Shown one piece after another: positions 2,703-62,286 of a stretch of 64,000 bases of DNA. The stretch is from Lignipirellula cremea (GTDB lineage: Bacteria > Planctomycetota > Planctomycetia > Pirellulales > Pirellulaceae), in NCBI RefSeq assembly GCF_007751035.1, contig NZ_CP036433.1, forward strand, positions 712,437-776,436. The letters are read 5' to 3'. The notes beneath the pieces were generated by a model, which made no database searches, had not been told where the DNA came from, and saw only the letters and a list, made by a program, of their open reading frames with translations. The position numbers and the translations under genes are program-made. Every line of letters starts with the position of its first letter. Within the stretch, counting starts at the first letter, position 1.

Positions 2703-4445
2703 TTATTCGATAATGCCCGGCGCCGCCGGATCCTCGGGGCTGATGGCGGCTTGCTCGCTGGGCGCGGGCTCCCCGGAGGCTGGCTCGTCGTGATCCCAGG
2801 GGCTGCTGGGCAGGGATTCCCGGCGGGGATGCATTTCTGCTTCATCTTCCAGCACGCGTTGTGGGGCGGCCTGGCGGGTCGCTTCGACCTCGCGGGCGGC
2901 CAGTGCTAACTGCACAAGAAACGCCAGCCCGCCGCCCAGCAGCACCAGCCCCACAATCACCGACTGGGCGCTCAAGCTCTCGTCGTGCACTTCGATAATG
3001 GTCCAGAGCCAGTTGGGCAGCTGCATCATGTCGTACTCGTAGGAAGCCACATTCAGGTCAAAGATGGCCGGAAGAATGGCCGAGGCCAGAAACGGCCCCA
3101 CCGCCCCTCCCACAATGACAAACAGATTGATCGAGAACGCCCGGAACACGCCGATCGCCATCCGTTGCCGGAAGAGCATCACTAGTCCCCGGCCGATCGT
3201 CAGATATATCGCCAGATAGGACAGCCAGAGTATCCCTGGCAGCACGATATGCTCAAACGGGAAGGGGTCGGACTCGTTCCACAAGCCCAGGAAGGTCCCC
3301 AGGAACGCCACGCACACCACTCCCAGCAGGTAGTTCAGCAGGGCGAACAAAGTGCCCGTCCCCGACCCGGGATTGAACCAGGTAAACACGGCCCGTCCTA
3401 ACAAGCTTTGCGGCAACTGCCGCCGTACACGGGGGGAGAGCTCGGCCATTTCCCCGCTCATCAGCGATCCCATCACGGCCCAGTAAAAAGCCGAAATGGA
3501 AAAGAAGAACGTAAAGGCCTCCCATTCCTTCTGATTGGCGTACCAGCAGACGGCCCAGCCAAAAAGAATCAAGTGCTGCACGCACATCACCATGCGCAGT
3601 CGGGTGGAGCGATTGTCGCTGGAAAAACTAATTTGCGCAGCGGCCGCCATCACAAACAGGGCCAGAAACGACCCCATGATCAGCGCCAGCAGCAACATGA
3701 TAAGCCAGAAGATTCGGTCGTCGTAAGCGGTAGGCGAGCCTGCCTCGACCCAGACCCAGACCGCCGTCACCACCCACCCTGTAATAAACAGCTGCCCGAT
3801 CAACTGCAGGATCGAGATGAGCATCTGCCACACCTGCACCGTGGTGACCGTGGCCAGCAAGAGCCCTAGCGCCGACAGCAGCACGGACCCCAGGAACAGC
3901 CCCGACAGCAGCAGCATGATCGACACCACGTCGATACCACGGAGCAGATAGGTAAAGGCGATACAAGGGGAAAGGGCCGAGTAGTAAACGATGATCTGCA
4001 GGATCGCACTGCCCAGTTTGCCCGTCACAATCTGTCGGGCCGACAAGGCCGTAATCGATAGCAGCTCAAAAGTGCCGTCTTCCCGTTCCGACGCCAGCGA
4101 GCGGAACGCCATGTACGGCACAATCACCAGCAATGGCACGGCCAGCACGGTGAAGTAACCGGCCAGCACCAGCGGCCCCATCGGCTGGAAATACATCGCT
4201 TCGCCATGCTGTGCATAGCTCAGCGACAGGACCAGCCCGGTCCAGGCCCAGGCGCACAGAATGAGCAGTGTAAACGTCACGACGAACTGCATGCTCTTCA
4301 TCGCCTGGCGGGCTTCCTTGACCAGAATCGGGTTCAACCGTTCCCCGGCCCGGTCCAGCCAGCCTTCCAGGCGAGCAATCCCGGCGGCGGCCGGTTCCTG
4401 TCCCGCCAGCTCTTCCGGCAACAGCCCTTTATCCAGCGTGCTCAC
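2703..4445 (-). CDS. ABC transporter permease, multi-pass membrane protein
   Basis: About 12 predicted hydrophobic helices. Start overlaps (ATGA) the stop of the upstream ABC ATPase gene on the same strand. Confidence 0.55.
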   Translation of the reverse strand: MSTLDKGLLPEELAGQEPAAAGIARLEGWLDRAGERLNPILVKEARQAMKSMQFVVTFTLLILCAWAWTGLVLSLSYAQHGEAMYFQPMGPLVLAGYFTVLAVPLLVIVPYMAFRSLASEREDGTFELLSITALSARQIVTGKLGSAILQIIVYYSALSPCIAFTYLLRGIDVVSIMLLLSGLFLGSVLLSALGLLLATVTTVQVWQMLISILQLIGQLFITGWVVTAVWVWVEAGSPTAYDDRIFWLIMLLLALIMGSFLALFVMAAAAQISFSSDNRSTRLRMVMCVQHLILFGWAVCWYANQKEWEAFTFFFSISAFYWAVMGSLMSGEMAELSPRVRRQLPQSLLGRAVFTWFNPGSGTGTLFALLNYLLGVVCVAFLGTFLGLWNESDPFPFEHIVLPGILWLSYLAIYLTIGRGLVMLFRQRMAIGVFRAFSINLFVIVGGAVGPFLASAILPAIFDLNVASYEYDMMQLPNWLWTIIEVHDESLSAQSVIVGLVLLGGGLAFLVQLALAAREVEATRQAAPQRVLEDEAEMHPRRESLPSSPWDHDEPASGEPAPSEQAAISPEDPAAPGIIE

Positions 4446-5858: not shown

Positions 5859-6656
5859 AACGTTGTCTGTCGGCTGCGGAGGAGTGGGCAAAAAATTGGA
5901 TCGACCGTAGCCGATCACGGCCCGGCGAAAGGGAATCAAGGTATTTCGGTCGTTCCCTGCCGGAGGCGTTCCCAGCTTTTTTCGGAGTTTTCCGAGCGAA
6001 CTGCTCGGCCGCCGCCATGACAAAGCCATAGGGATGCGGATCGCGAAGTGGGAAATTTTGGCGCAGGGAATCTCAACAGATTAACGCGTCGCCCGTCGAA
6101 TCACAACTTGGGCTTGCATTCGCAAACGAATCTGGCAAAATGCTTGGTTTCGGCCAAGGTAAACAGCGACGCCTGCTGCGTTTTTGTTTGCCTGGAGAAA
6201 GCCGGAAAGACCGCAAGTCCCTTCCCTCAGGCGACTTTTTTTGCTTTTGGCAAGGTTTTGCGGGATGAATCTTGGAGTTCCTTTTTACAATCGACCGTTT
6301 ACGGTTGTCCTTCTGGGTTTGGATATTGTGTAGATCCATTGTACCGGAACGGAGAAAACAGGCTGCATGTCGCGATCAGGGATGGTGCAGCCTGGAGTGT
6401 TTCAGGACGAAGAAGAAAAGAGCTCCCGCTAGATTTCCTGGAGATGATCAACCGCCGTCAATTCATTTTTTACGGCGTTTTCGATGTTTTCGCCCCGTAG
6501 CCGACCAGCGGCGACGGTTTGTTTTGACGTTGTGGCGAGGCCACGGCGTCAAGATGCCTGTGAGATACCCGTTGTTGTTTTTTTGGCGGACGGTTTCCGG
6601 CCAGCAATAAAAAGCTGCTATCAGACAGTTTGAATTTCGAGTTAAAGGTTTGCGGC

Positions 6657-7376: not shown

Positions 7377-7940
7377 ATGAAATTGATTGTCGGACTGGGT
7401 AATCCCGGATCCAAGTATGCGGGGACTCGCCACAATGTCGGTTTCGATGTTGTGGCCGCATTAAGCGGTCGTTACGGCGTAGGTTCGATCAAAAATCAGT
7501 TCAAGGCGGAAGTACAAGAGGCCGTGGTCGACCAGCAGAAATTCCTGCTGGTCTGCCCGCAAACGTTTATGAATAAAAGCGGCGACAGCGTGCGTGCTGC
7601 GCTTGATTTTTACAAGCTGGAGGCGACGGAGATCCTGGTGATTTGCGACGACTTTAGCCTGCCGCTCGGCCGGTTGCGATTTCGTCCTCAGGGATCCGCC
7701 GGCGGGCAAAAGGGATTGGCCGACATTCTCCGCCAGGTGGGTGTCGATTCCGTACCGCGGTTGCGGTTCGGTATTGGGGCGCCGCCAGGCCGGTGGGACC
7801 CCGCAGATTTTGTACTCAGCAAGTTCACCGCTGCGGAACGCGTCGATGTCGAAATCGACACCGCTCGGGCGGCCGATGGGGCCGCCGACTGGGTTCGCCA
7901 TGGCGTGGAATATTGCATGAACCAATACAACGGGGCCTGA
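7377..7940 (+). CDS. pth: peptidyl-tRNA hydrolase
   Basis: MKLIVGLGNPGSKYAGTRHNVGF is the classic Pth N-terminus. Conserved rplY-pth order. Confidence 0.9.
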   Translation: MKLIVGLGNPGSKYAGTRHNVGFDVVAALSGRYGVGSIKNQFKAEVQEAVVDQQKFLLVCPQTFMNKSGDSVRAALDFYKLEATEILVICDDFSLPLGRLRFRPQGSAGGQKGLADILRQVGVDSVPRLRFGIGAPPGRWDPADFVLSKFTAAERVDVEIDTARAADGAADWVRHGVEYCMNQYNGA

Positions 7941-8097
7941 TCGGGCTCCTTTTTGACCGTCCACTGACCGACCACTGTTCGACCCCGCCGCGTTAAGATC
8001 TGCTCTTGCCCGCGGTATGGCGTTGAATACCTTACAACCACATGCGAAGGCCAGGCCACACGCCGGGTCAACCGCACTCAAGCAGGGGAGATGAATT

Positions 8098-13123: not shown

Positions 13124-13714
13124 ATGACGGACACGCCCGCCGAATCGTTGCCTCGCAGTCCTGAGCTCATGTCGCGCGAGGACACGGGCCTGCTGGTGGT
13201 CGATGTCCAGGGGAAGCTGGTCGGTCTGATCCCCGACCATGACCGGCTGATCTGGAATGTCCGGCGTCTGATCGATGGCGCCAGAATCCTGGGGCTGCCG
13301 GTCGCGGCGACCGAGCAGTACCCGCAAGGGCTGGGCCCAACCACGCCCGAGCTGGCGGAACGGCTGGAAGCGATCGCTTCCAAGCTGCGTTTCAGCTGTG
13401 GCGAATGCGGGTCGATCTTTTCTAATTGGCGCGAGGCGGGTGTCTACAAGATCCTGGTCGCCGGGATCGAAGCCCATGTCTGCGTGCAGCAAACGGTGCT
13501 CGATCTGCTCTCGGCCGGGTTCCAGGTGTACGTCGCGGTCGATGCGGCCGGCTCCCGGTTTCCGATCGATTACGACATCGCCCTCCGCCGGATGGAAGCC
13601 GCCGGCGCCATGCTGACCACAACCGAAGCGGCCCTGTTTGAATGGTGCGAAGTCGCCGGCAGCCCCGAGTTCAAGCAGATCAGCCAGCTCGTCCGCGAAG
13701 CGGCGCCCGGTTAA
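13124..13714 (+). CDS. isochorismatase-family cysteine hydrolase
   Basis: LLVVDVQ...GIEAHVCVQQT catalytic Cys motif of the isochorismatase family. Confidence 0.75.
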   Translation: MTDTPAESLPRSPELMSREDTGLLVVDVQGKLVGLIPDHDRLIWNVRRLIDGARILGLPVAATEQYPQGLGPTTPELAERLEAIASKLRFSCGECGSIFSNWREAGVYKILVAGIEAHVCVQQTVLDLLSAGFQVYVAVDAAGSRFPIDYDIALRRMEAAGAMLTTTEAALFEWCEVAGSPEFKQISQLVREAAPG

Positions 13715-13743
13715 ACCGAGTTCGCTCCCTCGTTTTCCCGCAT

Positions 13744-13821
13744 GTAGCCGAAGTCGCCAGACTTTGGAGAGAGCGTTCTGCGCGATTGGAACAGCGACCA
13801 AACTCTGGCGAGTTCGGCTAC
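13744..13821. repeat. long imperfect hairpin (24-nt arms, about 30-nt loop) downstream of the isochorismatase gene
   Basis: gtagccgaagtcgccagactttgg ... ccaaactctggcgagttcggctac; the arms are reverse complements with 2 mismatches. Confidence 0.5.
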
Positions 13822-13916
13822 GGCGTTCTGCGGAAATTTCCCACCCACAAACGAGACGCCCGTCCTTTTGTGGATATCCTTGGTGATTCTTGTTGAAGCG
13901 GCCGGCCGCCTGCAGG

Positions 13917-13966
13917 TAAAATCATCGCAGGGGCGGCGCCAGTGCGATCGGTCGATCGCACCTTTT
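13917..13966 (+). promoter_or_regulatory. conserved promoter-leader module upstream of paralog P1: TAAAAT box, 19-nt spacer, perfect palindrome GTGCGATCGgtCGATCGCAC, then CTTTT
   Basis: Seen in sequence. The identical architecture recurs upstream of P2 and P4 with exactly the same 19-nt spacing. Confidence 0.6.
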
Positions 13967-13980
13967 GGGCGAGGGAGACC

Positions 13981-15078
13981 ATGCGACGATTCAATTGTTT
14001 TCTTGGTTTGCTGGCGGTCCTGGCGGCCGGGGGTTTCTGCCTGGCGCAACTTCCCCTGGGAAGTTCGCAACAGGAGCCGGCGGCGGTAGTCGCGTCGTCG
14101 CCAGCCGGCGCGAAGGCGATCGCTCCATCGCAGCAGGTCAAATCGCCTGACGCGCTCGTTCAGCCACAAACGTCCAGTCTGGCGATTGCTGTTCCTCCGC
14201 CGGAAGCAGCGGCGGAGGCCGCCATTCGCGCGGCGCTCGACCAGCCTTTTGCCTTCGAAGGTATAGTGACGCCGCTGCACCAGGTGGCTTCTTTCATCCA
14301 GAAAAATCATCAGATCCAGGTGGAAATCGACCGCCCCGCCCTGACTGAAGAAGGCCTCGACCCCAGCATGGAGATCACCTTCCAGGCGAACAACCGCACG
14401 CTGCGGTCTTCGCTGAACCGCATGCTCCAGGGAACGGGACTCGCCTGGTACATTGCCGACGAAACGCTGCTGATCTCCACCCGTGACGAAGTTGAGAGTC
14501 ACCCCGTCACCCGCGTCTATCCGGTGGACGACCTGACGGTTGAAAACGCCACAACGACGAACCGCTACCACGGCTCGCGCTCCTCGTTACGGCCCGCGGA
14601 GTTGATCAACATGATCTCCTCCCTGATTGCCCCCGATTCCTGGGACCCGTACGGCGAATCAGGAGTGATCGAAGGCGCCAGCCTGGGCGGCCGGGAGGTC
14701 CTGTTGGTATCGCAGACCGAAGCGGTGCATGACCAGGTCGCCGAGCTGCTGCGGCAGATTCGAGCGGTCCCGCCAGCGCCGCGGCCGGAAGAGCCGGCAA
14801 CCGACCTGCGCGTCCATCCGCTGTCGGACAATGCGGCCAAAGTCCGGCAAGAGATCATCGACATGGTGCAGCAGACGGTGGAGCCGGAAAGCTGGGAGCA
14901 GCCAGGCATCTTCCTCAAGCCAGCGGCGAGCGTGCTGGTGATCCGCCAGTCCCCTGCCAACCAGCGCAAGATCGAGGAGCTGCTGTCGGAGATCAACATG
15001 CACACCACGCCCTTCGTCTTCCCCACTTTTTCAGGCGATCAAGGCGATGGCGGCGGCATGTCGGGCTCCGACAATTAG
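13981..15078 (+). CDS. secreted STN-domain / secretin-N-like repeat protein, paralog P1
   Basis: Signal peptide. STN-like block (AAIRAALDQPF...ANNRTLRSSLNRML..ETLLIST). Two secretin N1-like blocks (VTRVYPVDDL...LLVSQTEAVHDQVAELLRQIR and LRVHPLS...VLVIRQSPANQRKIEELLSEI). Gly-rich C-terminal tail. No secretin beta-barrel domain. The ORF track starts at a GTG inside the leader palindrome; the ATG at 13981 follows an AGGGAG ribosome-binding site. Confidence 0.7.
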   Translation: MRRFNCFLGLLAVLAAGGFCLAQLPLGSSQQEPAAVVASSPAGAKAIAPSQQVKSPDALVQPQTSSLAIAVPPPEAAAEAAIRAALDQPFAFEGIVTPLHQVASFIQKNHQIQVEIDRPALTEEGLDPSMEITFQANNRTLRSSLNRMLQGTGLAWYIADETLLISTRDEVESHPVTRVYPVDDLTVENATTTNRYHGSRSSLRPAELINMISSLIAPDSWDPYGESGVIEGASLGGREVLLVSQTEAVHDQVAELLRQIRAVPPAPRPEEPATDLRVHPLSDNAAKVRQEIIDMVQQTVEPESWEQPGIFLKPAASVLVIRQSPANQRKIEELLSEINMHTTPFVFPTFSGDQGDGGGMSGSDN

Positions 15079-15145
15079 CGGCGACGAAACTCCCTGCACG
15101 GCGAAACGCCTGGCTTTCCCATTCGCGGGGCCGGTGGTCTGTTGG

Positions 15146-15195
15146 TAGAATGGTTCGCGGGGCTTTACTCGTGCGATCGGGCAATCGCACCTTTT
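15146..15195 (+). promoter_or_regulatory. conserved promoter-leader module upstream of P2: TAGAAT, 19-nt spacer, GTGCGATCGggCAATCGCAC, CTTTT
   Basis: Seen in sequence. Confidence 0.6.
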
Positions 15196-15211
15196 CCGGT
15201 GAGAGCAGGCA

Positions 15212-16204
15212 ATGCAGCGGTTCTTCTTTTCTTTCAGTCTGGCGGTCATCCTGGCCGCGTGCAGCGTGAGTCATGCGCAGCCGCCGTCGCGTTCGCCCAC
15301 GCTTCCGTCCGATCCGCCCGCCACGGTTGCTGAAACGGAAGCCGCCATTCGCGCGGCGTTCGACAAGCCGTTTACGGGTGAGTTCAACGCGACGCCTTTG
15401 TCCGAGGTGGCGAAGCATCTCCAGCAGACGTTTCAGATCAATGTGGACCTGGACCGCAGAGCACTCGACGGCGTGGGCATTGCCGCCGACACGCCGGTCA
15501 CTTTTGCGGCCAACAACCGCACGCTGCGGTCTTCCCTGCGACTGATGCTGCGGGAACTGGAGCTGACCTGGGTCGTCGCCAACGAAACGCTCGTCATTAC
15601 CACCCCCGACGAAGCCGAAGGGCATGTGCTGACGCGGGTTTACCCGGTCGGCGATCTGGCGACGCGGTCAGACGAATCTTCGACGCTGCTCTCCTGGGAA
15701 GCCGGCGGCGGAAAATTTGACGACCTGCGCGATCTGATCACGTCGACGATCGCTCCCGAAATGTGGGCCGATGTTGGCGGTCGCGGCTCGATTTCCGATG
15801 GCGCTTTCCAGGGACGCGACGTACTCATTGTGTCGCAAACCGAAGAGGTCCACGATCAAATCGCCCATCTGTTCCGCCAGATGCGCACGTTCCCGGCAGC
15901 GCCCAGGCCAAAGCAGGCGGAGGCTTCCACCGGGCTGCGGGTGTATCGGTTGACTCCCAAAGCGGCGGAAAAAAAGGAAGAGATCGTCGCCATGCTGCGA
16001 CGTGTGGTCGAGGCGGAGAGCTGGAACCAGAAGGACGTGCAGCTGGAATTTGCAGCCGACGCGCTGGTGATCCGCCAGTCGCGGGAGGCCCATCGTCAGA
16101 TCCAGGATCTGCTGGAAGCACTCGACGCCCTGGCGCCGGTGGTCGTCGATTTCAACGGGTTCGGCGGCCAGCTTCCTGAGGGTCAGGGCGGCAGTTTTTT
16201 CTAG
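15212..16204 (+). CDS. secreted/lipoprotein STN / secretin-N-like repeat protein, paralog P2
   Basis: Signal peptide with an LAAC lipobox-like motif. Same STN + 2x N1-like domain order as P1. Ends ...GQGGSFF. Confidence 0.7.
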   Translation: MQRFFFSFSLAVILAACSVSHAQPPSRSPTLPSDPPATVAETEAAIRAAFDKPFTGEFNATPLSEVAKHLQQTFQINVDLDRRALDGVGIAADTPVTFAANNRTLRSSLRLMLRELELTWVVANETLVITTPDEAEGHVLTRVYPVGDLATRSDESSTLLSWEAGGGKFDDLRDLITSTIAPEMWADVGGRGSISDGAFQGRDVLIVSQTEEVHDQIAHLFRQMRTFPAAPRPKQAEASTGLRVYRLTPKAAEKKEEIVAMLRRVVEAESWNQKDVQLEFAADALVIRQSREAHRQIQDLLEALDALAPVVVDFNGFGGQLPEGQGGSFF

Positions 16205-16242
16205 ACGGCTGTTTGTTCCGTCTTTCAGCAAGGAACGAACTC

Positions 16243-17526
16243 ATGCACAAGCTCCTGCAGGCTGGCGCCCTGGCGGCCTTACTCATGTTCCTGGCGACAA
16301 CGATCGAAGCGGGCGAGACGGATGTCGATTCTGCGCACGCCCGGATACAAGCGGCGCTGAACCAGCCTTTCTCCGGCGATTTCCAGCAGACGCCGTTGGC
16401 GGATGTCGTGCGCAGGATCGCAAAGCAGGCATCGATCCCGGTGCGACTGGAGGAGGAGCCCGCGAACCTTGCCGACAGACCCGTCACCTTCTGGTGTCAT
16501 AAGATGACACTGCGCCACGCGATGGGCCGAATGCTGCACGATCTGGGCCTGGTCTGGCGGCTGCGCGACGGCGCCGTGGTGATTGGTCCGCCGCTAGCGA
16601 CCGACGAAGAGCCGCTCTCAATGCGGATGTACGGCGTGACCGACCTGGTGCGGGACAGCACCGAACCGTACCCTCTGGACCGGCTCGTTGAGGTGATCAC
16701 GCAGATGGTCGACACGCCGTCACAGCAGCTCCGTAACCTGGAGTCCTTGCGCGGCGAGCAGCTGGGCGATCGCTGGATGCTGGTCGTCCATCAGACCGCG
16801 CAGGGCCATCGTGAGACGGCGGCCTTGCTGCAGGGTATCCGCTCGGTTCCTCCGGCGAACAAGCAGGCGGTCCGGCGCCATGACCCGATCTATTATCTCG
16901 AAGGTCCCATCGAAGCGAAGCTACGGGCGGCGCTTGACCAGCCGTTTGTGGAGGATTTCTTCGATACGACTTTGGAGCAGGTTGTGCGGCGGTTGTCGAA
17001 GGCGCACGGTGTCAACATCCTGCTGGACGAGCAGGCGCTGCATGGTATAGGAATTGGGGGCGATGTCCGCATCCGCTTTCCCCTGCAGAAACTCACGCTG
17101 CGATCCGCCTTGAACCGGATCCTGGCGGACCTGGAGCTGACCTGGATGATTCGCGACGAAGCGATCCTGCTCACCACGCCGGACGTCGTTGACGATCACC
17201 AGCAACCGGCCCTGTACGATGTCCACGATCTGGTCACGCCGCCGCCGGCGAACGCCTTCCCTTTGCTTGTGGCGCCGCTGGCGTTGCCCTTAAGCGTGGC
17301 GCCACAGGACGTGAAAGAGGCGATGCTCGACTTTGATCCGCTTGTCGAACTCATCACCAGCACCGTCAGCCCCGACGCCTGGCCGGAAGGCACGGGTCCC
17401 AGTTCCGTCCTCGGGGAAGAATTCGGTGGTCGACGCCTGCTGATCCTGGAGCAGACCGACGAAGTCCACCTGCAGATCGCCGACCTGCTTCGCCAGCTGC
17501 GAGCGGCCCTGGCCGAGGGCCCTTGA
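16243..17526 (+). CDS. secreted STN / secretin-N-like repeat protein, paralog P3, with a duplicated STN-like domain
   Basis: Signal peptide MHKLLQAGALAALLMFLATTIEA. Two STN-like blocks (ARIQAALNQPFSGDFQQTPL... and LRAALDQPFVEDFFDTTL...) followed by an N1-like block (LILEQTDEVHLQIADLLRQLR). AAGGA ribosome-binding site. Sits 38 bp after the P2 stop with no leader module of its own, so it is probably co-transcribed with P2. Confidence 0.65.
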   Translation: MHKLLQAGALAALLMFLATTIEAGETDVDSAHARIQAALNQPFSGDFQQTPLADVVRRIAKQASIPVRLEEEPANLADRPVTFWCHKMTLRHAMGRMLHDLGLVWRLRDGAVVIGPPLATDEEPLSMRMYGVTDLVRDSTEPYPLDRLVEVITQMVDTPSQQLRNLESLRGEQLGDRWMLVVHQTAQGHRETAALLQGIRSVPPANKQAVRRHDPIYYLEGPIEAKLRAALDQPFVEDFFDTTLEQVVRRLSKAHGVNILLDEQALHGIGIGGDVRIRFPLQKLTLRSALNRILADLELTWMIRDEAILLTTPDVVDDHQQPALYDVHDLVTPPPANAFPLLVAPLALPLSVAPQDVKEAMLDFDPLVELITSTVSPDAWPEGTGPSSVLGEEFGGRRLLILEQTDEVHLQIADLLRQLRAALAEGP

Positions 17527-17565
17527 GCGGCCCTTTTCCTGCTCGAAAGCCGGTCGGGTTGGTGC

Positions 17566-17615
17566 TAGAATCGCAGCAGGGGCGTTATGCGTGCGATCGT
17601 CAGACCGCACTTTTC
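17566..17615 (+). promoter_or_regulatory. conserved promoter-leader module upstream of P4: TGcTAGAAT, 19-nt spacer, GTGCGATCGtcaGACCGCAC, TTTTC
   Basis: Seen in sequence. Extended -10-like TGn precedes TAGAAT. Confidence 0.55.
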
Positions 17616-17629
17616 TGTTGAGGTACGTT

Positions 17630-18646
17630 ATGCGGCGGATCTTCTTTTTTCTCAGTTTGCTAGTTGTGTCTTTCATGTGCGGTTCCGGCGGGGCCCAGCC
17701 GGCGGATCGGCCGGAAACCGTAACGCCCAGGGATGTGGGGATTGGTCCGCCGCAATCGGCGGCGGAAAAGGCGATTCGGGCGGCGCTGGAAAAGCCGTAC
17801 ACCGGTCAACTGGAGAATACGCCGTTGCGCAAGGTGATCGGTGCGATTGCCGAAACCTATCAGATTAATGTCGCCCTGGACCACCGGGATCTGGGCGGCG
17901 TTGGCATCGACGGCGACACGCCCGTTTCCTATGCGGGGAACAGCAGTACGCTGCGTTCCGCCCTGAAGCAGATTCTGCAGGAGCTGGAACTGGTCTGGGT
18001 GATTCAGGACGAAACCCTGCTGATCACCACGCCGTATGAAGTGGAGGACATTCTGGTCACACGTCTCTACGAAGTGCAGGATCTGGTCATGGTCCCCAGA
18101 AAGAAGCCGCTGCTGTGGGGACCGGGCGGCCTGGACGCCGATTTCGATACGCTCCAGGAGACGATCACTTCGACCATCGCCCCCGACACGTGGGACGAGG
18201 TGGGCGGCCCCGGCTCCTTCCAAGGCGGCTCCTTTGGCGGACGCTACTTGCTGGTCGTCTCCCAGTCGGAAAGCGTTCATAAACAGATCGCCGATCTGTT
18301 CCAGAGCATGCGAACCGTCCGTCCTCCGGCGCCGGCTGAAGAGAAACCGAGCGACGAAAAGACCACGCTGCATGTCTATAGATTATCGGCCGATGCGGCA
18401 GGCAAGTCGGACGAACTGACGGCCGTGCTCAAAAAGATCGTGGAGCCGGAAAGCTGGCAGCAGCCAGGCGTGCAGCTGGAAGCGGCCGCCGACGCGCTCA
18501 TCATTCGACAGACGCCGGCGGTGCATGAGAGCATCGGGGAACTGCTGCAGGCGATGGGCGCCCTGGCTCCTTCGCTGGATTACTACGACGACGGGGGCAG
18601 AAGCAGAGGGTTCAGCGGGGGAAGCATGGGCTTTGGCTTCCAGTAG
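17630..18646 (+). CDS. secreted STN / secretin-N-like repeat protein, paralog P4
   Basis: Signal peptide. Same domain order as P1/P2 (AIRAALEKPYTGQLENTPL..., VTRLYEVQDL...LLVVSQSESVHKQIADLFQSMR, LHVYRLS...ALIIRQTPAVHESIGELLQAM). The ORF track starts at a GTG inside the leader; the ATG at 17630 is the more likely start. Confidence 0.7.
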   Translation: MRRIFFFLSLLVVSFMCGSGGAQPADRPETVTPRDVGIGPPQSAAEKAIRAALEKPYTGQLENTPLRKVIGAIAETYQINVALDHRDLGGVGIDGDTPVSYAGNSSTLRSALKQILQELELVWVIQDETLLITTPYEVEDILVTRLYEVQDLVMVPRKKPLLWGPGGLDADFDTLQETITSTIAPDTWDEVGGPGSFQGGSFGGRYLLVVSQSESVHKQIADLFQSMRTVRPPAPAEEKPSDEKTTLHVYRLSADAAGKSDELTAVLKKIVEPESWQQPGVQLEAAADALIIRQTPAVHESIGELLQAMGALAPSLDYYDDGGRSRGFSGGSMGFGFQ

Positions 18647-20008: not shown

Positions 20009-20239
20009 CCTTGGCCTCCGAACGAACGATCGCTGGGAAAACGACGCGCATCGTAGGGAAAAAGGAAAACCACGAGAAGAGCGGTTTTCCCGCGTCTTTA
20101 CCTTTTTCTGGCATTTTTCCCGGATTTCCGGGAAGTCAGCTTGCGCGAGGGGGAACGCGGTCCCTCAACCCTAACCGGGGGTGATTCACCGGGCGAAACG
20201 ATCGTCAGAAGCTGGCAGCGGTCACAAGGCCTGGCCGTG

Positions 20240-20440
20240 TTAACCGTGTTCCATACTCTGGGTGGGATCGACGGACGGGGGCTGGCGATTGGGGTCCTGC
20301 AGTTCGGCCCGCACCACGACCGCTCCGGGAGCCGTTTCGACTCCCAGACGCACGCCTGTGCTGGTTACCCGGACGACGGTGATCTGAATCTCATCGCCGA
20401 TTTGAATTCGCTCACCAACTTTGCGGCTGAGTACAAGCAT
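20240..20440 (-). CDS. csrA: carbon storage regulator CsrA homologue
   Basis: 66 aa MLVLSRKVGERIQIGDEIQITVVRVTSTGVRLGVETAPGAVVVRAEL matches the CsrA/RsmA consensus (MLILTRRVGE..I.IGD.I.V.VL...G..VRLG..AP..V.V.R.E). The ORF track extends it upstream spuriously. Confidence 0.75.
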   Translation of the reverse strand: MLVLSRKVGERIQIGDEIQITVVRVTSTGVRLGVETAPGAVVVRAELQDPNRQPPSVDPTQSMEHG

Positions 20441-20697
20441 TGTCGCCACACATAAAAAGAGGTGGAGGACCATCGCCAGATACAAAGTGACAGCGACAGT
20501 AGCGACCGCTGGTAAAGATAGCACTCCGCCAGGCCGGGAACAAGAGCTGAGCCTGGCCCGCTGGCAGTCGCGCGTTTTCAACCTGTCGCCGGAACGCAAG
20601 TTACGACGCTGAAAATTCCGTCACGGCGAACCTGTTGCGGCCCGTTTGCTCTACAATGGCGTCCTCTCAATTCCCTCCTTTCTGACATGCCCAAGCC

Positions 20698-32552: not shown

Positions 32553-33120
32553 GATGCTCGTACCTCCGTACAGGTTTTGCCGGTTCCGCAACCCGCGTTC
32601 TGGATCCGGAACGATCGCCTTTCACCGCAGCGAAAGCAGGCGCCCTGCTGCGGAGCAACGAGCGACGAACGGCCTGGATTTTTTCTGGATGCCTGATGTG
32701 ATGTGTGGACGTCGGTGCGTCCTGGTGAAATAAAAAAAGGCCCTCGGGAAAGACACGCCTTCTGTCGGTCGCAAGCGAAGATCACGGAGCGCGACTTGAG
32801 CGGTCACACGACCGCGGCTTCACGCCGGCGTCGGTCCGTCGGGCTGCCGAGCGCACAGGGCGTCGGGGCTGACGGAGGAGGACCGGCGTTGATCCACGGC
32901 CTGGTAAAGGCGGTATCCACGCGCTACAGGGTGTTCTTCACGGCTGCTTCCGCTGATCGGGATTCGTCGTCAAAGGCAGCATGGCCGCCGCCGCATCGCC
33001 GCGGTCGGCTGGCTTCCTTGTCAACGTCTCCCTGCCTGCGGTCGCTGACCGGGCAGTGGGTATCTTTCCGTTGGGCTAATCAGTGATGCACGCTTGCGCG
33101 CGCGACAGGGTGAAAACCTG

Positions 33121-33193
33121 CGGGTGGTGAAGGGTTCGAACCTCCTACATTCAGATTAAATGTCTGATGCTCTGCCAAATGAGCTAACCACGA
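33121..33193 (-). tRNA. tRNA-Lys(UUU)-like, probable pseudogene
   Basis: Manual minus-strand fold. D-arm TAGCTCATTTGGCAGAGCA. Anticodon arm TCAGA-CATTTAA-TCTGA (anticodon UUU, but A at position 33). T-arm GGAGG-TTCGAAC-CCTTC. Acceptor positions 1 and 2 are unpaired (5' TCGTGGT against 3' ACCACCC). Confidence 0.4.
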
Positions 33194-33305
33194 ACGTTTA
33201 TCGCCTTTGTTGTAAACCATGTACGGAACACGCCAGGCTAACTACCGCCGAGGGCGACGAGCCGGCGCGCCGCTGGACCCAGCGACAAACTTCCTTGCTT
33301 GAAAA

Positions 33306-33376
33306 TGACTCGTGCGGGAATCGAACCCGCGCCGCGAGAATGAGGGCCTCGCATCCTGCCGCTAGACGAACGAGCC
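33306..33376 (-). tRNA. tRNA-Glu(CUC)
   Basis: Acceptor GGCTCGT/ACGAGTC. D-arm GTCT..GGAT shared with the Glu(UUC) gene. Anticodon loop CCCTCAT (C33, anticodon CUC). T-arm GCGGG-TTCGATT-CCCGC. Confidence 0.55.
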
Positions 33377-33387
33377 GGAAACTTCAG

Positions 33388-33564
33388 CGGTGATGACGGG
33401 ATTTGAACCCGCACGAACGGATAGGAACTGGGGAAGAATAACTTCGGCTCACAGGAGTAGAACCGCCCGACGCTAGCGCGTTCGGCTCACTATACAAAAA
33501 CCGAAGTTATTTTCCCCTCGTTCCATAGACAATCCGTGATGATGCCAGGTTACATCACATCACC
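33388..33564 (-). tRNA. tRNA-Asp(GUC) interrupted by a 101-bp MITE in the anticodon loop
   Basis: With 33424-33524 and one ATA copy removed, the gene folds as GGTGATG..ACGGA-TTGTCTA-TCCGT..GCGGG-TTCAAAT-CCCGT-CATCACC-G. Perfect 7-bp acceptor, G73 and GUC anticodon are consistent with Asp. Confidence 0.55.
33424..33524. mobile_element. MITE-like 101-bp inverted-repeat element (copy 1) with ATA target-site duplication
   Basis: Terminal inverted repeats GGAACTGGGGAAGAATAACTTCGG / CCGAAGTTATTTTCCCCTCGTTCC. Flanked by ATA on both sides. Related terminal repeats occur at 51681-52071. Confidence 0.6.
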
Positions 33565-33601
33565 GGAGAACACCTTTTAATACCAGGCTTTTCCTCTCAG
33601 G

Positions 33602-33671
33602 CTGCAGGTCTCGGTATCGAACCGAGCGGGCGGGCCGTATGAAAGCCAGCTGGACACCTGTCGCACCTGCA
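33602..33671 (-). tRNA. tRNA-like fragment (acceptor stem + T-arm only), pseudogene
   Basis: Perfect 7-bp acceptor TGCAGGT/ACCTGCA and T-arm CTCGG-TTCGATA-CCGAG. No D-arm or anticodon arm could be folded from the intervening 38 nt. Confidence 0.3.
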
Positions 33672-33680
33672 ACGCTTTAG

Positions 33681-33765
33681 TAACCAGGGGGAGACTTGCA
33701 CTCCCAACTCCTCAGGGGGAACGACGTTCTAAGCGTCGCGCGTCTGCTAATTCCGCCACCTCGCC
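33681..33765 (-). tRNA. tRNA-Leu(UAG)-like class II tRNA, atypical (possible pseudogene)
   Basis: 85 nt. 5' half GGCGAGG-TG-GCGGAATTAGCAGACGC resembles bacterial tRNA-Leu. Anticodon arm CGACG-CTTAGAA-CGTCG. Long variable arm. T-arm GGGAG-TGCAAGT-CTCCC with G at position 55. Acceptor has two G.U pairs and one G.G mismatch. Discriminator A. Confidence 0.45.
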
Positions 33766-33830
33766 ATCCATCAACCTGCTTCTACTGCTTCTCTTGTCCT
33801 GCTTCTCTTCTTCCTGTCTCCTGATACAAG

Positions 33831-33912
33831 TACGCCGGGCAGGAGTTGAACCTGCACATCCCAAAGGCGGCTGCTTTACAGGCAGTTGGGCTCGCCGATG
33901 CCCAGCCGACGT
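33831..33912 (-). tRNA. tRNA-Tyr(GUA)
   Basis: Acceptor ACGTCGG/CCGGCGT. D-arm GGGC-ATCGGCGA-GCCC. Anticodon loop CTGTAAA. 14-nt variable arm. T-arm GCAGG-TTCAACT-CCTGC. Discriminator A. Confidence 0.7.
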
Positions 33913-33932
33913 ATGTTGTTTGCGTTCTTCAA

Positions 33933-34006
33933 TACCCAGAGCAGGGATCGAACCTGCATCCTCTCGGGTTTAAACCGAGTCGCTCTTCCGGTTGGCGCAC
34001 CTGGGC
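33933..34006 (-). tRNA. atypical class-I tRNA with UAA anticodon
   Basis: Acceptor GCCCAGG/TCTGGGT with G.U pairs at both ends. 3-bp D-stem. Anticodon arm CTCGG-TTTAAAC-CCGAG. 5-nt variable loop. T-arm GCAGG-TTCGATC-CCTGC. Discriminator A. A class-I scaffold with a Leu anticodon is noncanonical. Confidence 0.4.
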
Positions 34007-34014
34007 ATGAAAAG

Positions 34015-34086
34015 TAGTCCCGGATGGAATCGAACCATCGTATCCTGGATGTGAACCAGGCGTCGTCGCCGTTGGACCACGGGACT
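34015..34086 (-). tRNA. tRNA-Val(CAC)
   Basis: Perfect acceptor AGTCCCG/CGGGACT. Anticodon arm CCTGG-TTCACAT-CCAGG. T-arm GATGG-TTCGATT-CCATC. Confidence 0.7.
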
Positions 34087-34241
34087 GTTTCTGTTCCTGC
34101 ACTTCTTTCTAGTGCTGCGTCAAGGCAAAGAGTTCGGGTTCTTCCAATTAGCCGTTTTGGCGATAGCCACGGTTAACTAAAAGGAACAGCGGCTCGCGCG
34201 AAAATGGCCAAACCTGAAATGGAAACTTGACGCACCACTAG

Positions 34242-34312
34242 TGGACCTGCCGGGAGTCGCACCCGGATCTCCGGCCTGCGACGCCGGCGTCTTCCTGTTG
34301 GACGATAGGCCC
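34242..34312 (-). tRNA. tRNA-Ala(CGC)-like with G3.U70, atypical T-loop
   Basis: Acceptor GGGCCTA/CAGGTCC carries a G3.U70 wobble, the Ala identity element. Anticodon arm CCGGC-GTCGCAG-GCCGG. T-arm CCGGG-TGCGACT-CCCGG with G at position 55. Short D-loop. Confidence 0.45.
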
Positions 34313-34338
34313 ATTTTTTGAGCGATCTCGCTCAAGGC

Positions 34339-34409
34339 ATGCCCCCAAGGACTTGAACCCTGACAAACTGGGTTGGAACCAGCCGTGCTGCCAATTACAC
34401 CAGGGACAC
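34339..34409 (-). tRNA. tRNA-Trp(CCA)-like, acceptor top unpaired (possible pseudogene)
   Basis: D-arm GTGT-AATTGGCA-GCAC. Anticodon arm GCTGG-TTCCAAC-CCAGT (anticodon CCA). T-arm CAGGG-TTCAAGT-CCTTG. Only 4 of 7 acceptor pairs form (5' GTGTCCC against 3' GGGGGCA). Confidence 0.4.
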
Positions 34410-34425
34410 ACAAAACTTTCCTCAG

Positions 34426-34510
34426 CGGAAGCCGTGAGACTCGAACTCACAAGCGGCTTTCGCCGCCGCCTGTTTTCAAGACAGGGTCCTCATCCGGCCG
34501 GATGGCTTCC
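34426..34510 (-). tRNA. tRNA-Ser(UGA)
   Basis: Perfect acceptor GGAAGCC/GGCTTCC. Anticodon arm CCTGT-CTTGAAA-ACAGG. Long variable arm. T-arm GTGAG-TTCGAGT-CTCAC. Discriminator G. Confidence 0.75.
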
Positions 34511-34525
34511 TTCATGTTCTGCAAG

Positions 34526-34600
34526 CTGCGGGAGTTGGAATCGAACCAACGACCTCCTGGTTCAGAGCCAGGCATCACTACCAACAGCAACTATCCCGCA
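34526..34600 (-). tRNA. tRNA-Gln(CUG)
   Basis: U1-A72 acceptor TGCGGGA/TCCCGCA, typical of bacterial Gln. Anticodon loop CTCTGAA. T-arm GTTGG-TTCGATT-CCAAC. Confidence 0.75.
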
Positions 34601-34649
34601 TTGTTTCTTTTATGACTTCTACCTCAAGTTCTCCTCGCGACCTGTGGAG

Positions 34650-34724
34650 CTGCGGGAGCAGGAATCGAACCTGCGACCTCCTGGTTCAAAGCCAGGCATC
34701 ACTACCAGCAGCGACTGTCCCGCA
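34650..34724 (-). tRNA. tRNA-Gln(UUG)
   Basis: Near-duplicate of the Gln(CUG) gene. Anticodon loop CTTTGAA. T-arm GCAGG-TTCGATT-CCTGC. Confidence 0.75.
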
Positions 34725-34750
34725 TTGGACGATGGCTATATCACTTTGAA

Positions 34751-34822
34751 AGGGACGGGCGGGACTCGAACCCGCGCGAGGACGCTTAACAGACGTCTGC
34801 TCTGCCGCTGAGCTACCGACCC
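34751..34822 (-). tRNA. tRNA-Asn(GUU)
   Basis: D-arm TAGCTC-AGCGGCA-GAGC. Anticodon arm GACGT-CTGTTAA-GCGTC. T-arm GCGGG-TTCGAGT-CCCGC. One T.T mismatch in the acceptor. Confidence 0.65.
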
Positions 34823-34837
34823 GGCATGCCTGTAAAG

Positions 34838-34909
34838 AGTGTTCTGCGGGAGTCGAACCCGCCTCGCCAGGTTGGAAGCCTGGAGCCTTTGCCGCTCGGC
34901 CAAGAACAC
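34838..34909 (-). tRNA. tRNA-Gly(UCC)
   Basis: Perfect acceptor GTGTTCT/AGAACAC. Anticodon arm CCAGG-CTTCCAA-CCTGG. T-arm GCGGG-TTCGACT-CCCGC. Confidence 0.7.
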
Positions 34910-34961
34910 ATTTTTTGTATCTATCAATATCGGCGCCTGCCATTCCATGACACACGTTTAG

Positions 34962-35046
34962 CGGAAGGAGAGGGAGTCGAACCCCCAAGGCTGTGAAGCT
35001 CACCCCGGTTCGAGCGGGGCGCCGTCGCCCATCGGCTGGCCCTTCC
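34962..35046 (-). tRNA. tRNA-Ser(CGA)
   Basis: Acceptor GGAAGGG/TCCTTCC. Anticodon arm CCCCG-CTCGAAC-CGGGG. Long variable arm. T-arm GGGGG-TTCGACT-CCCTC. Discriminator G. Confidence 0.7.
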
Positions 35047-35073
35047 ATACAAAGCAACGCTACTTTCGCGGAG

Positions 35074-62173: not shown

Positions 62174-62286
62174 ACCGCCGCCGTTTGTCCTGGAATTAAA
62201 AGACAAACAATAAGAGGAGTTCACCGCTCCCTCTGCGGTGAATCCTTTCTTCTTGCCCCGCGATTCCCCCGTAGAACCGTCATTTC

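Follow-up and report, generated by a model that had tools for sequence, protein, structure and literature searches.

A promoter-like block with a 20-bp palindrome recurs before three of four tandem paralogues in Lignipirellula cremea

The locus described here lies in a 64-kb stretch of the Lignipirellula cremea genome, which was analysed as a whole and is called the window below. It comprises four tandem paralogues, P1 to P4, which are genes for secreted secretin-N-domain-like proteins:

13981..15078, plus strand: P1 gene, 365 aa, with a signal peptide, STN / secretin-N-like (P0006).
15212..16204, plus strand: P2 gene, 330 aa, matching a Lignipirellula cremea protein at 100% identity.
16243..17526, plus strand: P3 gene, 427 aa, with the domain set repeated twice and without the module described below.
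17630..18646, plus strand: P4 gene, 338 aa in GenBank (Pla8534_05190).

The model of the P2 protein resembles secretin N0-N1 domains, the STN and FecR_C matches of the protein family are weak, and the P1, P2 and P4 proteins are only 43–50% identical to each other. P1 starts at the ATG at position 13981 in GenBank and RefSeq, and P4 starts at the ATG at position 17630 in GenBank. The list of open reading frames places both starts further upstream, at a GTG within the palindrome, and these calls are artefacts, as had been pointed out in the preliminary description of this DNA. P3 follows 38 nt downstream of P2 and, by sequence reading and covariance-model search, lacks the module. The proposal that P2 and P3 form an operon is plausible on these grounds, and P3 is probably co-transcribed with P2. 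Ahead of the P4 promoter a terminator-like hairpin was read from the sequence. A separate 24-nt inverted repeat (13744–13821) follows the gene upstream of P1, and the spacer between P1 and P2 has just a weak 4-bp hairpin.

17517..17537, plus strand: terminator-like hairpin GGGCC-N7-GGCCC with TTTT, overlapping the P3 stop codon; it is absent from the list of the terminator scan.

Ahead of P1, P2 and P4 we find the same architecture, namely a –10-like box, a spacer of exactly 19 nt and then the sequence GTGCGATCG (starting at 13942, 15171 and 17591), which opens a palindrome and is followed in each copy by a T-run, a purine stretch resembling a Shine–Dalgarno (SD) sequence and the ATG. The features of the shared control region, which spans ∼75 bp with promoter-like boxes and a 20-bp palindrome close to the ribosome site, are:

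13893..13898, plus strand: P1 –35-like TTGAAG, 18-nt spacer to the –10 box (promoter scan).
13917..13922, plus strand: P1 –10-like TAAAAT (sequence, pattern match and promoter scan).
13930..13934, plus strand: P1 GGGGC where the start site is predicted, followed after 7 nt by the palindrome, invariant alignment columns 14–18.
13942..13961, plus strand: P1 palindrome GTGCGATCG-GT-CGATCGCAC, perfect 9+2+9; as RNA –11.9 kcal/mol.
13962..13966, plus strand: P1 CTTTT run after the palindrome (sequence reading).
13971–13977, plus strand: P1 SD-like GAGGGAG, after CTTTT.
15122..15127, plus strand: P2 weak –35-like TTCGCG, 3/6 matches, 18-nt spacer (sequence reading; absent from the list of the promoter scan).
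15143..15151, plus strand: P2 extended –10 TGgTAGAAT, hexamer at 15146–15151 (sequence).
15159..15163, plus strand: P2 GGGGC, conserved (sequence and alignment).
15171..15190, plus strand: P2 palindrome GTGCGATCG-GG-CAATCGCAC, one C.A mismatch, 8/9 pairs; –8.4 kcal/mol.
15191..15195, plus strand: P2 CTTTT run (sequence reading).
17543..17548, plus strand: P4 –35-like TCGAAA, 17-nt spacer (promoter scan).
17563..17571, plus strand: P4 extended –10 TGcTAGAAT, hexamer at 17566–17571 (promoter scan).
17579..17583, plus strand: P4 GGGGC, conserved (sequence and alignment).
17591..17610, plus strand: P4 palindrome GTGCGATCG-TC-AGACCGCAC, degenerate, 7/9 pairs in the same register; –8.0 kcal/mol alone.
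17611..17614, plus strand: P4 TTTT run (sequence reading).

The module had been called identical in its three copies. Its recurrence is confirmed, while the copies are similar and differ in sequence. The grading of the palindromes, perfect in P1, with one mismatch in P2 and degenerate in P4, is as described before, whereas the ATG does not follow 16–20 nt downstream but 14–16 nt after the T-run, that is 19–21 nt after the stem. Common to all three copies are GGGGC-N7-GTGCGATCG and CGCAC followed by the T-run. The outer 5 bp of the arms (GTGCG/CGCAC) are kept in every copy, as would also be predicted for the base of an RNA stem next to a U-run, and the apparent terminators at gene ends in the same genome have similarly short T-runs.

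With regard to the promoter, each of the hexamers TAAAAT, TAGAAT and TAGAAT matches TATAAT at 5/6 positions. When a –35 hexamer similar to TTGACA was looked for at a distance of 16–18 nt, P1 and P4 passed the scan and P2 did not. The promoter scan yielded 2 promoter-like sites in 8 kb compared to 1.2 ± 1.1 in shuffled sequences, and TAnnnT boxes are found 45–75 nt ahead of many other genes in the window. Reading TA(G/A)AAT as a –10 box of a sigma-70-type promoter is plausible in view of the TGn extension in P2 and P4, the –35-like hexamers in P1 and P4 and the similar boxes (TATAGT, TAAATT or TAGAAT) at –86 to –47 before homologues in other planctomycetes. From these features we infer the identity of the promoter and its start site; a search of the literature found no transcriptome paper for Lignipirellula.

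The pattern TA[AG]AAT-N19-GTGCGATCG has three exact matches in the 64 kb, and these are the three sites described. When up to three mismatches are allowed, 9 matches are found compared to 2.27 ± 1.47 in shuffled sequences, and none of 100 shuffles reached 9. A perfect palindrome of the size found before P1 is unsurprising here, with 4 in the window and 2.6 in simulations, whereas the threefold recurrence at the same place exceeds chance. In the alignment of the block 28 of 50 columns are invariant and the mean column identity is 83%. Three-way identity amounts to 57% in the block, to 33% in the coding DNA and to 23% in the distal upstream region, and none of the three-way identical runs in the ∼1.16-kb alignment is longer than GTGCGATCG. 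Moreover, the distance from the –10 box to the palindrome is equal in all three copies despite indels on both flanks. Recurrence, fixed spacing and conservation above the coding level are thus observed directly, and judged by this comparison the control block is under constraint. The conservation is patchy, with short conserved blocks and diverged spacers, which argues against a recent gene conversion. These observations support the view that a shared cassette has been selectively maintained before P1, P2 and P4.

Searches for further copies gave none. The 50-nt block was turned into a covariance model, which scored the three sites at 63–65 bits and the next unrelated match at 12 bits, and retrieved no other copy in the window. 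When 185,579 genomes and a metagenome collection were scanned for the exact pattern, no other module was returned, none of the 41 + 86 pattern matches in public collections carries it, and upstream of eight homologues in other genomes nothing comparable is found. The scans found the site in no second genome and so gave no phylogenetic footprint. We regard the finding as specific to this lineage and as belonging to a known kind, a real but ordinary shared regulatory cassette.

As to the mode of action, we tentatively prefer to read the 20-bp repeat, which would span about +13 to +32, as an operator and rank a role as RNA hairpin second. The repeat has the dyad symmetry of an operator (14–20 bp), and its distance from the promoter is constant, as it lies 19 nt from the –10 box in three units. 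The left half-site is invariant, and all three substitutions fall into the right arm and break pairs (C.A, A.C and G.A). For this reason the operator is favoured, and it seems to fit the substitution pattern slightly better than the RNA hairpin, with the proviso that three substitutions, none of them a wobble or compensatory change, are too few for the asymmetry of the arms to be significant. In addition, the unit upstream of P4 ends in a terminator-like hairpin of its own (17517–17537) and the gene upstream of P1 is followed by an inverted repeat; the palindrome is therefore not needed as a terminator at these places. We infer that a protein binds the repeat at the DNA level.

According to this model, the units P1, P2–P3 and P4 would each have retained the same cis-regulatory cassette upon gene duplication. 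It would consist of a sigma-70-type housekeeping promoter (–10 TA(A/G)AAT, TGn in P2 and P4, weak –35), GC(A)GGGGC as the start-site region and the 20-bp inverted repeat, which would be bound just downstream of the start site by a dimeric DNA-binding repressor. The bound repressor would block promoter escape or early elongation, such that the paralogues are co-regulated. Repression might be graded, with a perfect site at P1 and one perfect and one degenerate half-site at P2 and P4. The transcribed repeat may fold in the mRNA too, as CIRCE does, and we doubt that selection acts on this folding. No regulator gene was found within ∼10 kb on either side of the locus.

Alternatively, the palindrome could be transcribed as a hairpin of the 5′ leader followed by U4 and act at the RNA level, which we consider possible although doubtful. 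It might be an intrinsic terminator or attenuator, weak and early, that is read through with a trans-acting factor, or an element of mRNA stability or translation 5–8 nt ahead of the SD sequence. The leader hairpins of P1 and P2 are predicted to form (pair probability ∼0.95; –11.9 and –8.4 kcal/mol), 3/3 copies retain GUGCG/CGCAC as stem base along with the T-run, similarly short T-runs occur in hairpins 3′ of other genes in the window (7932–7949, 62219–62243), and nearly the same sequence gives terminator-like hairpins 3′ of cyanobacterial genes (L014, L015, L025). At the equivalent position P3 has an unrelated small hairpin with TTTC. However, the hairpin of P4 is absent from the minimum-energy fold and has an in-leader pair probability of 0.17, the leaders fold at the level of shuffled sequences (z –0.17 to +0.35), and the three changes include no compensatory or wobble change. 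About 13 unpaired nucleotides at the 5′ end leave the hairpin ill-placed for 5′-end protection. The Rfam scan at gathering thresholds returned tRNAs only, and a permissive scan of 13700–17700 gave chance-level matches with E of at least 2.

With regard to the earlier suggestion of an intrinsic terminator or attenuator, the consensus terminator scan called 0/3 module hairpins. The 8 bases after the stem contain 4 T in P1, 4 in P2 and 6 in P4, where at least 5 in 8 are expected of a terminator, and a proper U-tract right after the stem was not found. T-runs ahead of the SD sequence are generic, being present at 6/23 other genes compared to 6.7% of random windows. With the shuffle-level folding and the low pair probability of P4 added, the tests made here do not support this reading, which is weak. 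A conserved alternative (antiterminator) fold is found in none of the three leaders, and leader-peptide control was not recognized, the frame of the GTG being inconsistent between copies. A further reading, which is quite unlikely, is that the cassette is an unusually early leader attenuator within +40 with ∼38-nt RNAs from early termination. In this reading the GTG in the 5′ arm would serve as an initiation site with the conserved AGGGG 8 nt upstream, and a ribosome or other trans-acting factor bound at this site would melt the hairpin and U4 to allow read-through. We know of no attenuation described in the phylum Planctomycetota. If the attenuator were real, early termination would set the expression of a family of periplasmic proteins with secretin N-domains only.

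It is unlikely that the similarity is a functionless relic of tandem duplication or a short gene-conversion tract. There are just three copies, confined to a single paralogue cluster in a single species, and the homologues elsewhere lack a comparable element, as a relic would have it. Yet conservation is higher in the non-coding block than in the coding DNA though the proteins are only 43–50% identical, the short blocks with diverged spacers do not resemble a conversion tract, and the conserved blocks coincide with recognizable promoter and dyad features.

Very unlikely is an alternative-sigma promoter of the ECF type, with TA(G/A)AAT as –35 and (T/G)CGTGCGAT as –10 element and transcription starting inside or after the palindrome. 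A TAAAT box is the –35 element of iron-starvation sigma factors, in P2 and P4 a CGT is found 18 nt beyond TAGAAT, and the reading would suit the weak STN and FecR_C matches as well as homologues elsewhere that adjoin or are fused to sigma-70-family/ECF genes (P0037; L042, L044, L137). On the contrary, P1 has AGT in place of CGT, the AAC-type –35 core is absent, and the 18-nt spacing exceeds the usual 16–17 nt, so that the combination of an AAC core and CGT(C) 16–17 nt apart is not found. The TGn extension and the –35-like hexamers suit a housekeeping promoter instead, and the dyad symmetry and the GGGGC block stay unexplained.

Least likely of all, the left-arm GTG would be a real start codon with AGGGG 8 nt upstream as SD sequence. 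The P1 and P4 proteins would then be 13 aa longer at the N terminus (MRSxDRTF...), and P2 would have an upstream ORF of 32 codons. The spacing of AGGGG is fixed in 3/3 copies, GTG and ATG share one frame in P1 and P4, and the GAT/AAT/GAC and ACC/ACC/ACT differences are synonymous or conservative in the frame of the GTG; against this, GTG and ATG are in different frames in P2 (41 nt), the GenBank and RefSeq starts are the ATG or later, homologues begin with short M-x-R signal peptides as the ATG forms do, each ATG has a further SD-like purine stretch ahead of it (weak in P2, clear in the other two), and a coding role leaves the perfect palindrome unexplained. At GTG-CGA-TCG and CGC the third codon positions do not vary although the paralogues are otherwise saturated, which indicates a constraint at the nucleotide level.

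To our knowledge, experimentally almost nothing is known about promoters, operators and leader control in Planctomycetota. At this compact locus a candidate promoter with a regulatory palindrome of graded quality occurs naturally in triplicate, and the locus is thus a convenient test case; it could be used for planctomycetal promoter mapping, for regulator capture by DNA pull-down and for expression tools. The four uncharacterized secretin-N0/N1-like secreted proteins form one probable co-regulated set. No current concept is challenged, as a common control region among tandem paralogues is expected.

Several known systems resemble the module in part. Multi-copy GC-rich palindromes in intergenic DNA are also typical of REP and MITE elements, which are dispersed in many copies and both orientations; here we find three copies in 64 kb in a single orientation, at a fixed distance from the –10 box and from the start codon of paralogous genes. 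With intrinsic terminators and attenuators the module shares a GC-rich stem–loop and a T-run in the first ∼40 nt of the predicted transcript, and differs by the short T-run, the weak stem of P4 and the absence of an antiterminator fold or leader-peptide logic. The cyanobacterial look-alikes 3′ of genes (GTGCGATCG-loop-CGATCGCAC-TTTT) are nearly identical to the module; they are without the –10/GGGGC part and carry the octamer GCGATCGC, which we take to be the HIP1 repeat of cyanobacteria.

Operators of the lac O1 type are sites of LacI/GalR-family repressors near promoters. The module is like them a ∼20-bp dyad just past the start site with one half-site better conserved, and it has GTG...CAC at the outer ends of the palindrome as gal operators do. 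In contrast, its centre is the non-palindromic GT, GG or TC instead of the central CG typical of the family and lies at about +22 and not at +11, and no LacI-family gene was found within ∼10 kb on either side of the locus. CIRCE, the operator of HrcA, is found at heat-shock operons, where its 9-bp arms lie between the housekeeping promoter and the ribosome-binding site; it is repeated before several units and is a repressor site that is also able to fold in the mRNA. A search of the window for the CIRCE consensus TTAGCACTC-N9-GAGTGCTAA with up to 3 mismatches gave 0 matches, the module sequence being unrelated and the spacer 2 nt compared to 9 in CIRCE, and the genes code for secretin-N-domain-like secreted proteins instead of chaperones, with no known link to HrcA. 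Nevertheless, the module as read from its sequence resembles CIRCE in the 9-bp arms, in the position between promoter and ribosome-binding site, by which it would be transcribed, and in its occurrence before several units.

The preliminary description of this DNA had claimed that one promoter-like module recurs upstream of P1, P2 and P4, three of the four tandem paralogue genes coding for secreted proteins that resemble secretin N domains. By direct reading as well as by pattern matching we could confirm this recurrence: in all three copies a -10-like hexamer is followed after exactly 19 nt by GTGCGATCG. The genes and the module copies are:

13981–15078, P1 gene, 365 aa
15212–16204, P2 gene, 330 aa
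16243–17526, P3 gene, 427 aa
17630–18646, P4 gene, 338 aa
13917–13922, -10-like box TAAAAT of the P1 copy, palindrome from 13942
15146–15151, -10-like box TAGAAT of the P2 copy, palindrome from 15171
17566–17571, -10-like box TAGAAT of the P4 copy, palindrome from 17591

All copies share GGGGC-N7-GTGCGATCG, and the 20-bp inverted repeat (two arms of 9 nt around 2 nt) invariably ends with CGCAC, after which a T-run, a purine stretch resembling a ribosome binding site and the ATG follow; the purine stretch is weak in P2 but clear in the other two copies. The aligned 50-nt block has 28 invariant columns, and a covariance model built from this block gives 63–65 bits at the three sites, whereas the best unrelated match in the 64-kb window reaches 12 bits. 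In this DNA with 63% G+C, perfect 9+9 palindromes are found four times in the window as compared to 2.6 times in simulations. A single perfect palindrome is thus unremarkable here, and it is the recurrence which is non-random.

When P1, P2 and P4 are aligned from -160 to +1000, the three-way identity is 57% in the module, 33% in the coding DNA and 23% in the distal upstream DNA, and of all runs in this alignment that are identical three ways, the non-coding GTGCGATCG is the longest. Diverged spacers separate the short conserved blocks, and indels occur on both flanks, none inside the block. As judged from this pattern, purifying selection on a cis element fits better than a recent gene-conversion tract. 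From the sequence comparison we conclude that the cassette is a real and selectively maintained promoter–leader element common to three transcription units; P3 would be cotranscribed with P2.

All four proteins carry signal peptides. STN, Secretin_N and FecR_C of Pfam match them below threshold only, and the NCBIfam search gave no match. The AlphaFold model of P2 (mean pLDDT 68.7) resembles the periplasmic N0–N1 domains of secretins (GspD 3ezj, InvG 7ah9, XcpQ 4ec5) and is devoid of the beta-barrel part. P1, P2 and P4 share 43–50% pairwise identity, and P3 contains the domain set twice. For P4 (window 17630–17677) the RefSeq annotation starts at Met16 (323 aa), by which most of the signal peptide is lost, and the GenBank start at ATG 17630 (338 aa) agrees with the N-termini of the family. 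A fifth paralogue of L. cremea, Pla8534_04540 (P0046/P0050, 444/458 aa), is encoded outside the window ∼65 locus tags before P4 and has an insert rich in Pro, Asp and Phe after the signal peptide. A protein-based locus search confirmed no relative.

To define the distribution of the module, the pattern GTGCGATCG-N6-CGCAC-YTTT was searched in 185,579 species genomes, with no L. cremea match among them, and in metagenomes. The 41 genome matches come close to a by-hand estimate based on the pattern and the size of the database; none has TAnAAT at -25 or lies ahead of a homologue, and the sole planctomycete match (Novipirellula, L038) is located inside an ORF of 953 aa. The 86 metagenome matches are cyanobacterial hairpins containing GCGATCGC and AT-rich tandem repeats, again with neither the module nor a downstream homologue. 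The tandem repeats, with the unit GTGCGATCGCACAATCGCACTTTTGAAAAGAGCAACAAAAA, are found on AT-rich contigs (L052, L056, L060, L062, L065 and others; samples Ga0194119–Ga0194131); they were matched only because of the pattern they contain and have no relation to the module. The module is also absent upstream of eight homologues in other planctomycetes (L042–L047, L135–L137). At 3835–3853 of L043, a Pirellulales MAG, GCGCGATCG-TGAGG-CAATCGCGG (N5 spacer) is present 165 nt upstream of the homologue P0018, with the half-sites of the P2 palindrome including its C·A mismatch. Such a site is expected ∼0.05 times by chance across the upstream regions examined, and it is probably a chance occurrence. 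As far as seen in these scans and homologues, the cassette appears to be private to the P1–P4 cluster.

The hexamers are plausible -10 elements of a sigma-70-type promoter. P2 and P4 have extended -10 elements (TGn), and TGnTAnAAT is present nowhere else in the window; P1 (TTGAAG, 18-nt spacer) and P4 (TCGAAA, 17-nt spacer) pass a sigma-70 consensus scan. TAnnnT boxes are found 45–75 nt ahead of many other window genes, and boxes also precede homologues in other planctomycetes (CTGTTGGTATAGT in L042, TAAATT in L047, TAGAAT in L137). A literature search yielded no transcript data for L. cremea and no planctomycete promoter study. From the -10 spacing, transcription would begin ∼7 nt past the -10 at the A or C before GGGG, which would place the palindrome at about +13 to +32.

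Such a dyad could act as DNA or as RNA. The left arm does not vary between the copies; the three substitutions found are confined to the right arm, and each breaks a pair (C·A in P2, A·C and G·A in P4), with no wobble or compensatory pair created, although this asymmetry is based on very few events. In addition, the repeat keeps a constant total length and a constant spacing from the -10. Given these patterns and the evidence on termination discussed below, we tentatively suggest that the inverted repeat is a candidate DNA operator, and consider a role at the RNA level a less probable possibility. No regulator gene is found among the window neighbours of the cluster, which code for a transketolase, an isochorismatase, a lipoprotein, CsrA, an aminoacyl-tRNA synthetase and Cmk.

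It had also been proposed that the hairpin and T-run in the leader form a terminator or attenuator. The isolated hairpins indeed have folding energies of -11.9 (P1), -8.4 (P2) and -8.0 kcal/mol (P4), and the T-runs of other terminator-like structures, located at gene ends in the window, are likewise short. However, within the leader the hairpin forms with a probability of ∼0.95 in P1 and P2 but of only 0.17 in P4, where it is missing from the minimum-energy fold. The whole leaders fold with the energies of shuffled sequences, the three share no mutually exclusive alternative fold, and the hairpins are all absent from the output of a terminator scan. The T-run is unspecific, as TTTT is found at -40 to -9 in 6 of 23 other genes versus 6.7% of random windows, and may simply be part of the translation-initiation region. 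Taken together, these results disfavour the terminator or attenuator role. The palindrome is also unlikely to terminate the upstream gene, as each copy lies downstream of a -10 box, and at two junctions it is not needed for this purpose, as P3 and the isochorismatase gene end in structures of their own:

17517–17537, GGGCC-N7-GGCCC then TTTT, terminator-like, overlapping the P3 stop and unlisted by the consensus scan
13744–13821, inverted repeat of 24 nt with 92% complementarity around a 30-nt spacer, located between the isochorismatase stop and the P1 promoter, lacking a T-run and a second copy in the window

An ECF-type promoter with TAGAAT as -35 and CGTGCGAT as -10 would be in line with the association of the family with sigma-factor genes in other genomes; however, the spacing does not fit, the AAC core is missing and P1 carries AGT. 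Read as a coding start, the GTG in the repeat, which AGGGG precedes by 8 nt, is in frame in P1 and P4 but out of frame in P2, and such a start leaves both the dyad symmetry and the invariant third codon positions unexplained. We also rejected a sigma-54 promoter (GG-N10-GC is absent), control by CsrA, considered as csrA is 1.6 kb away (GGA is missing from the P2 and P4 leaders), and pairing of CACCUUUU with the ribosome binding site (weak and unconserved).

Some further structures of the window were recorded. Between csrA (20240–20455) and the gene of a 419-aa lipoprotein, the region 20063–20134 (minus) contains two:

20117–20134, minus strand, perfect palindrome TTCCCGGAAATCCGGGAA
20063–20091, minus strand, 11-bp hairpin with T-run

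A tRNA array (33120–37642, minus) comprises 24 genes on one strand with 18 amino-acid specificities, the Lys-UUU and Asn-GUU genes being duplicated, and is interrupted by the ORF of a DDE transposase (35255–36574). The 64 kb contain 76 copies of CGATCG and 517 of GATC, ∼3.5 and ∼2.4 times the by-hand base-composition estimates of ∼22 and ∼218, respectively. The groES (Cpn10) leader (5889–5947, minus) has a TACCTT box 21 nt ahead of a hairpin GATCGGCTACGGTCGATC, which contains CGATC and is followed by CAATTTTTT, ∼40 nt before the likely ATG (∼5857). It has no CIRCE element, and its layout is reminiscent of the P1, P2 and P4 module.

Neither an Rfam search nor a search with the CIRCE consensus matched the module itself. 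The mechanism may be that of a DNA operator, which we hold possible, or with a lower probability that of an RNA hairpin. In either case a promoter combined with a promoter-proximal dyad is a feature of an ordinary kind; elements of this type are uncharted in this organism. The position of the repeat resembles that of CIRCE, and its substitution pattern is that of a dyad-symmetric protein site in which, as in lac O1, one half is strong and the other degenerate.
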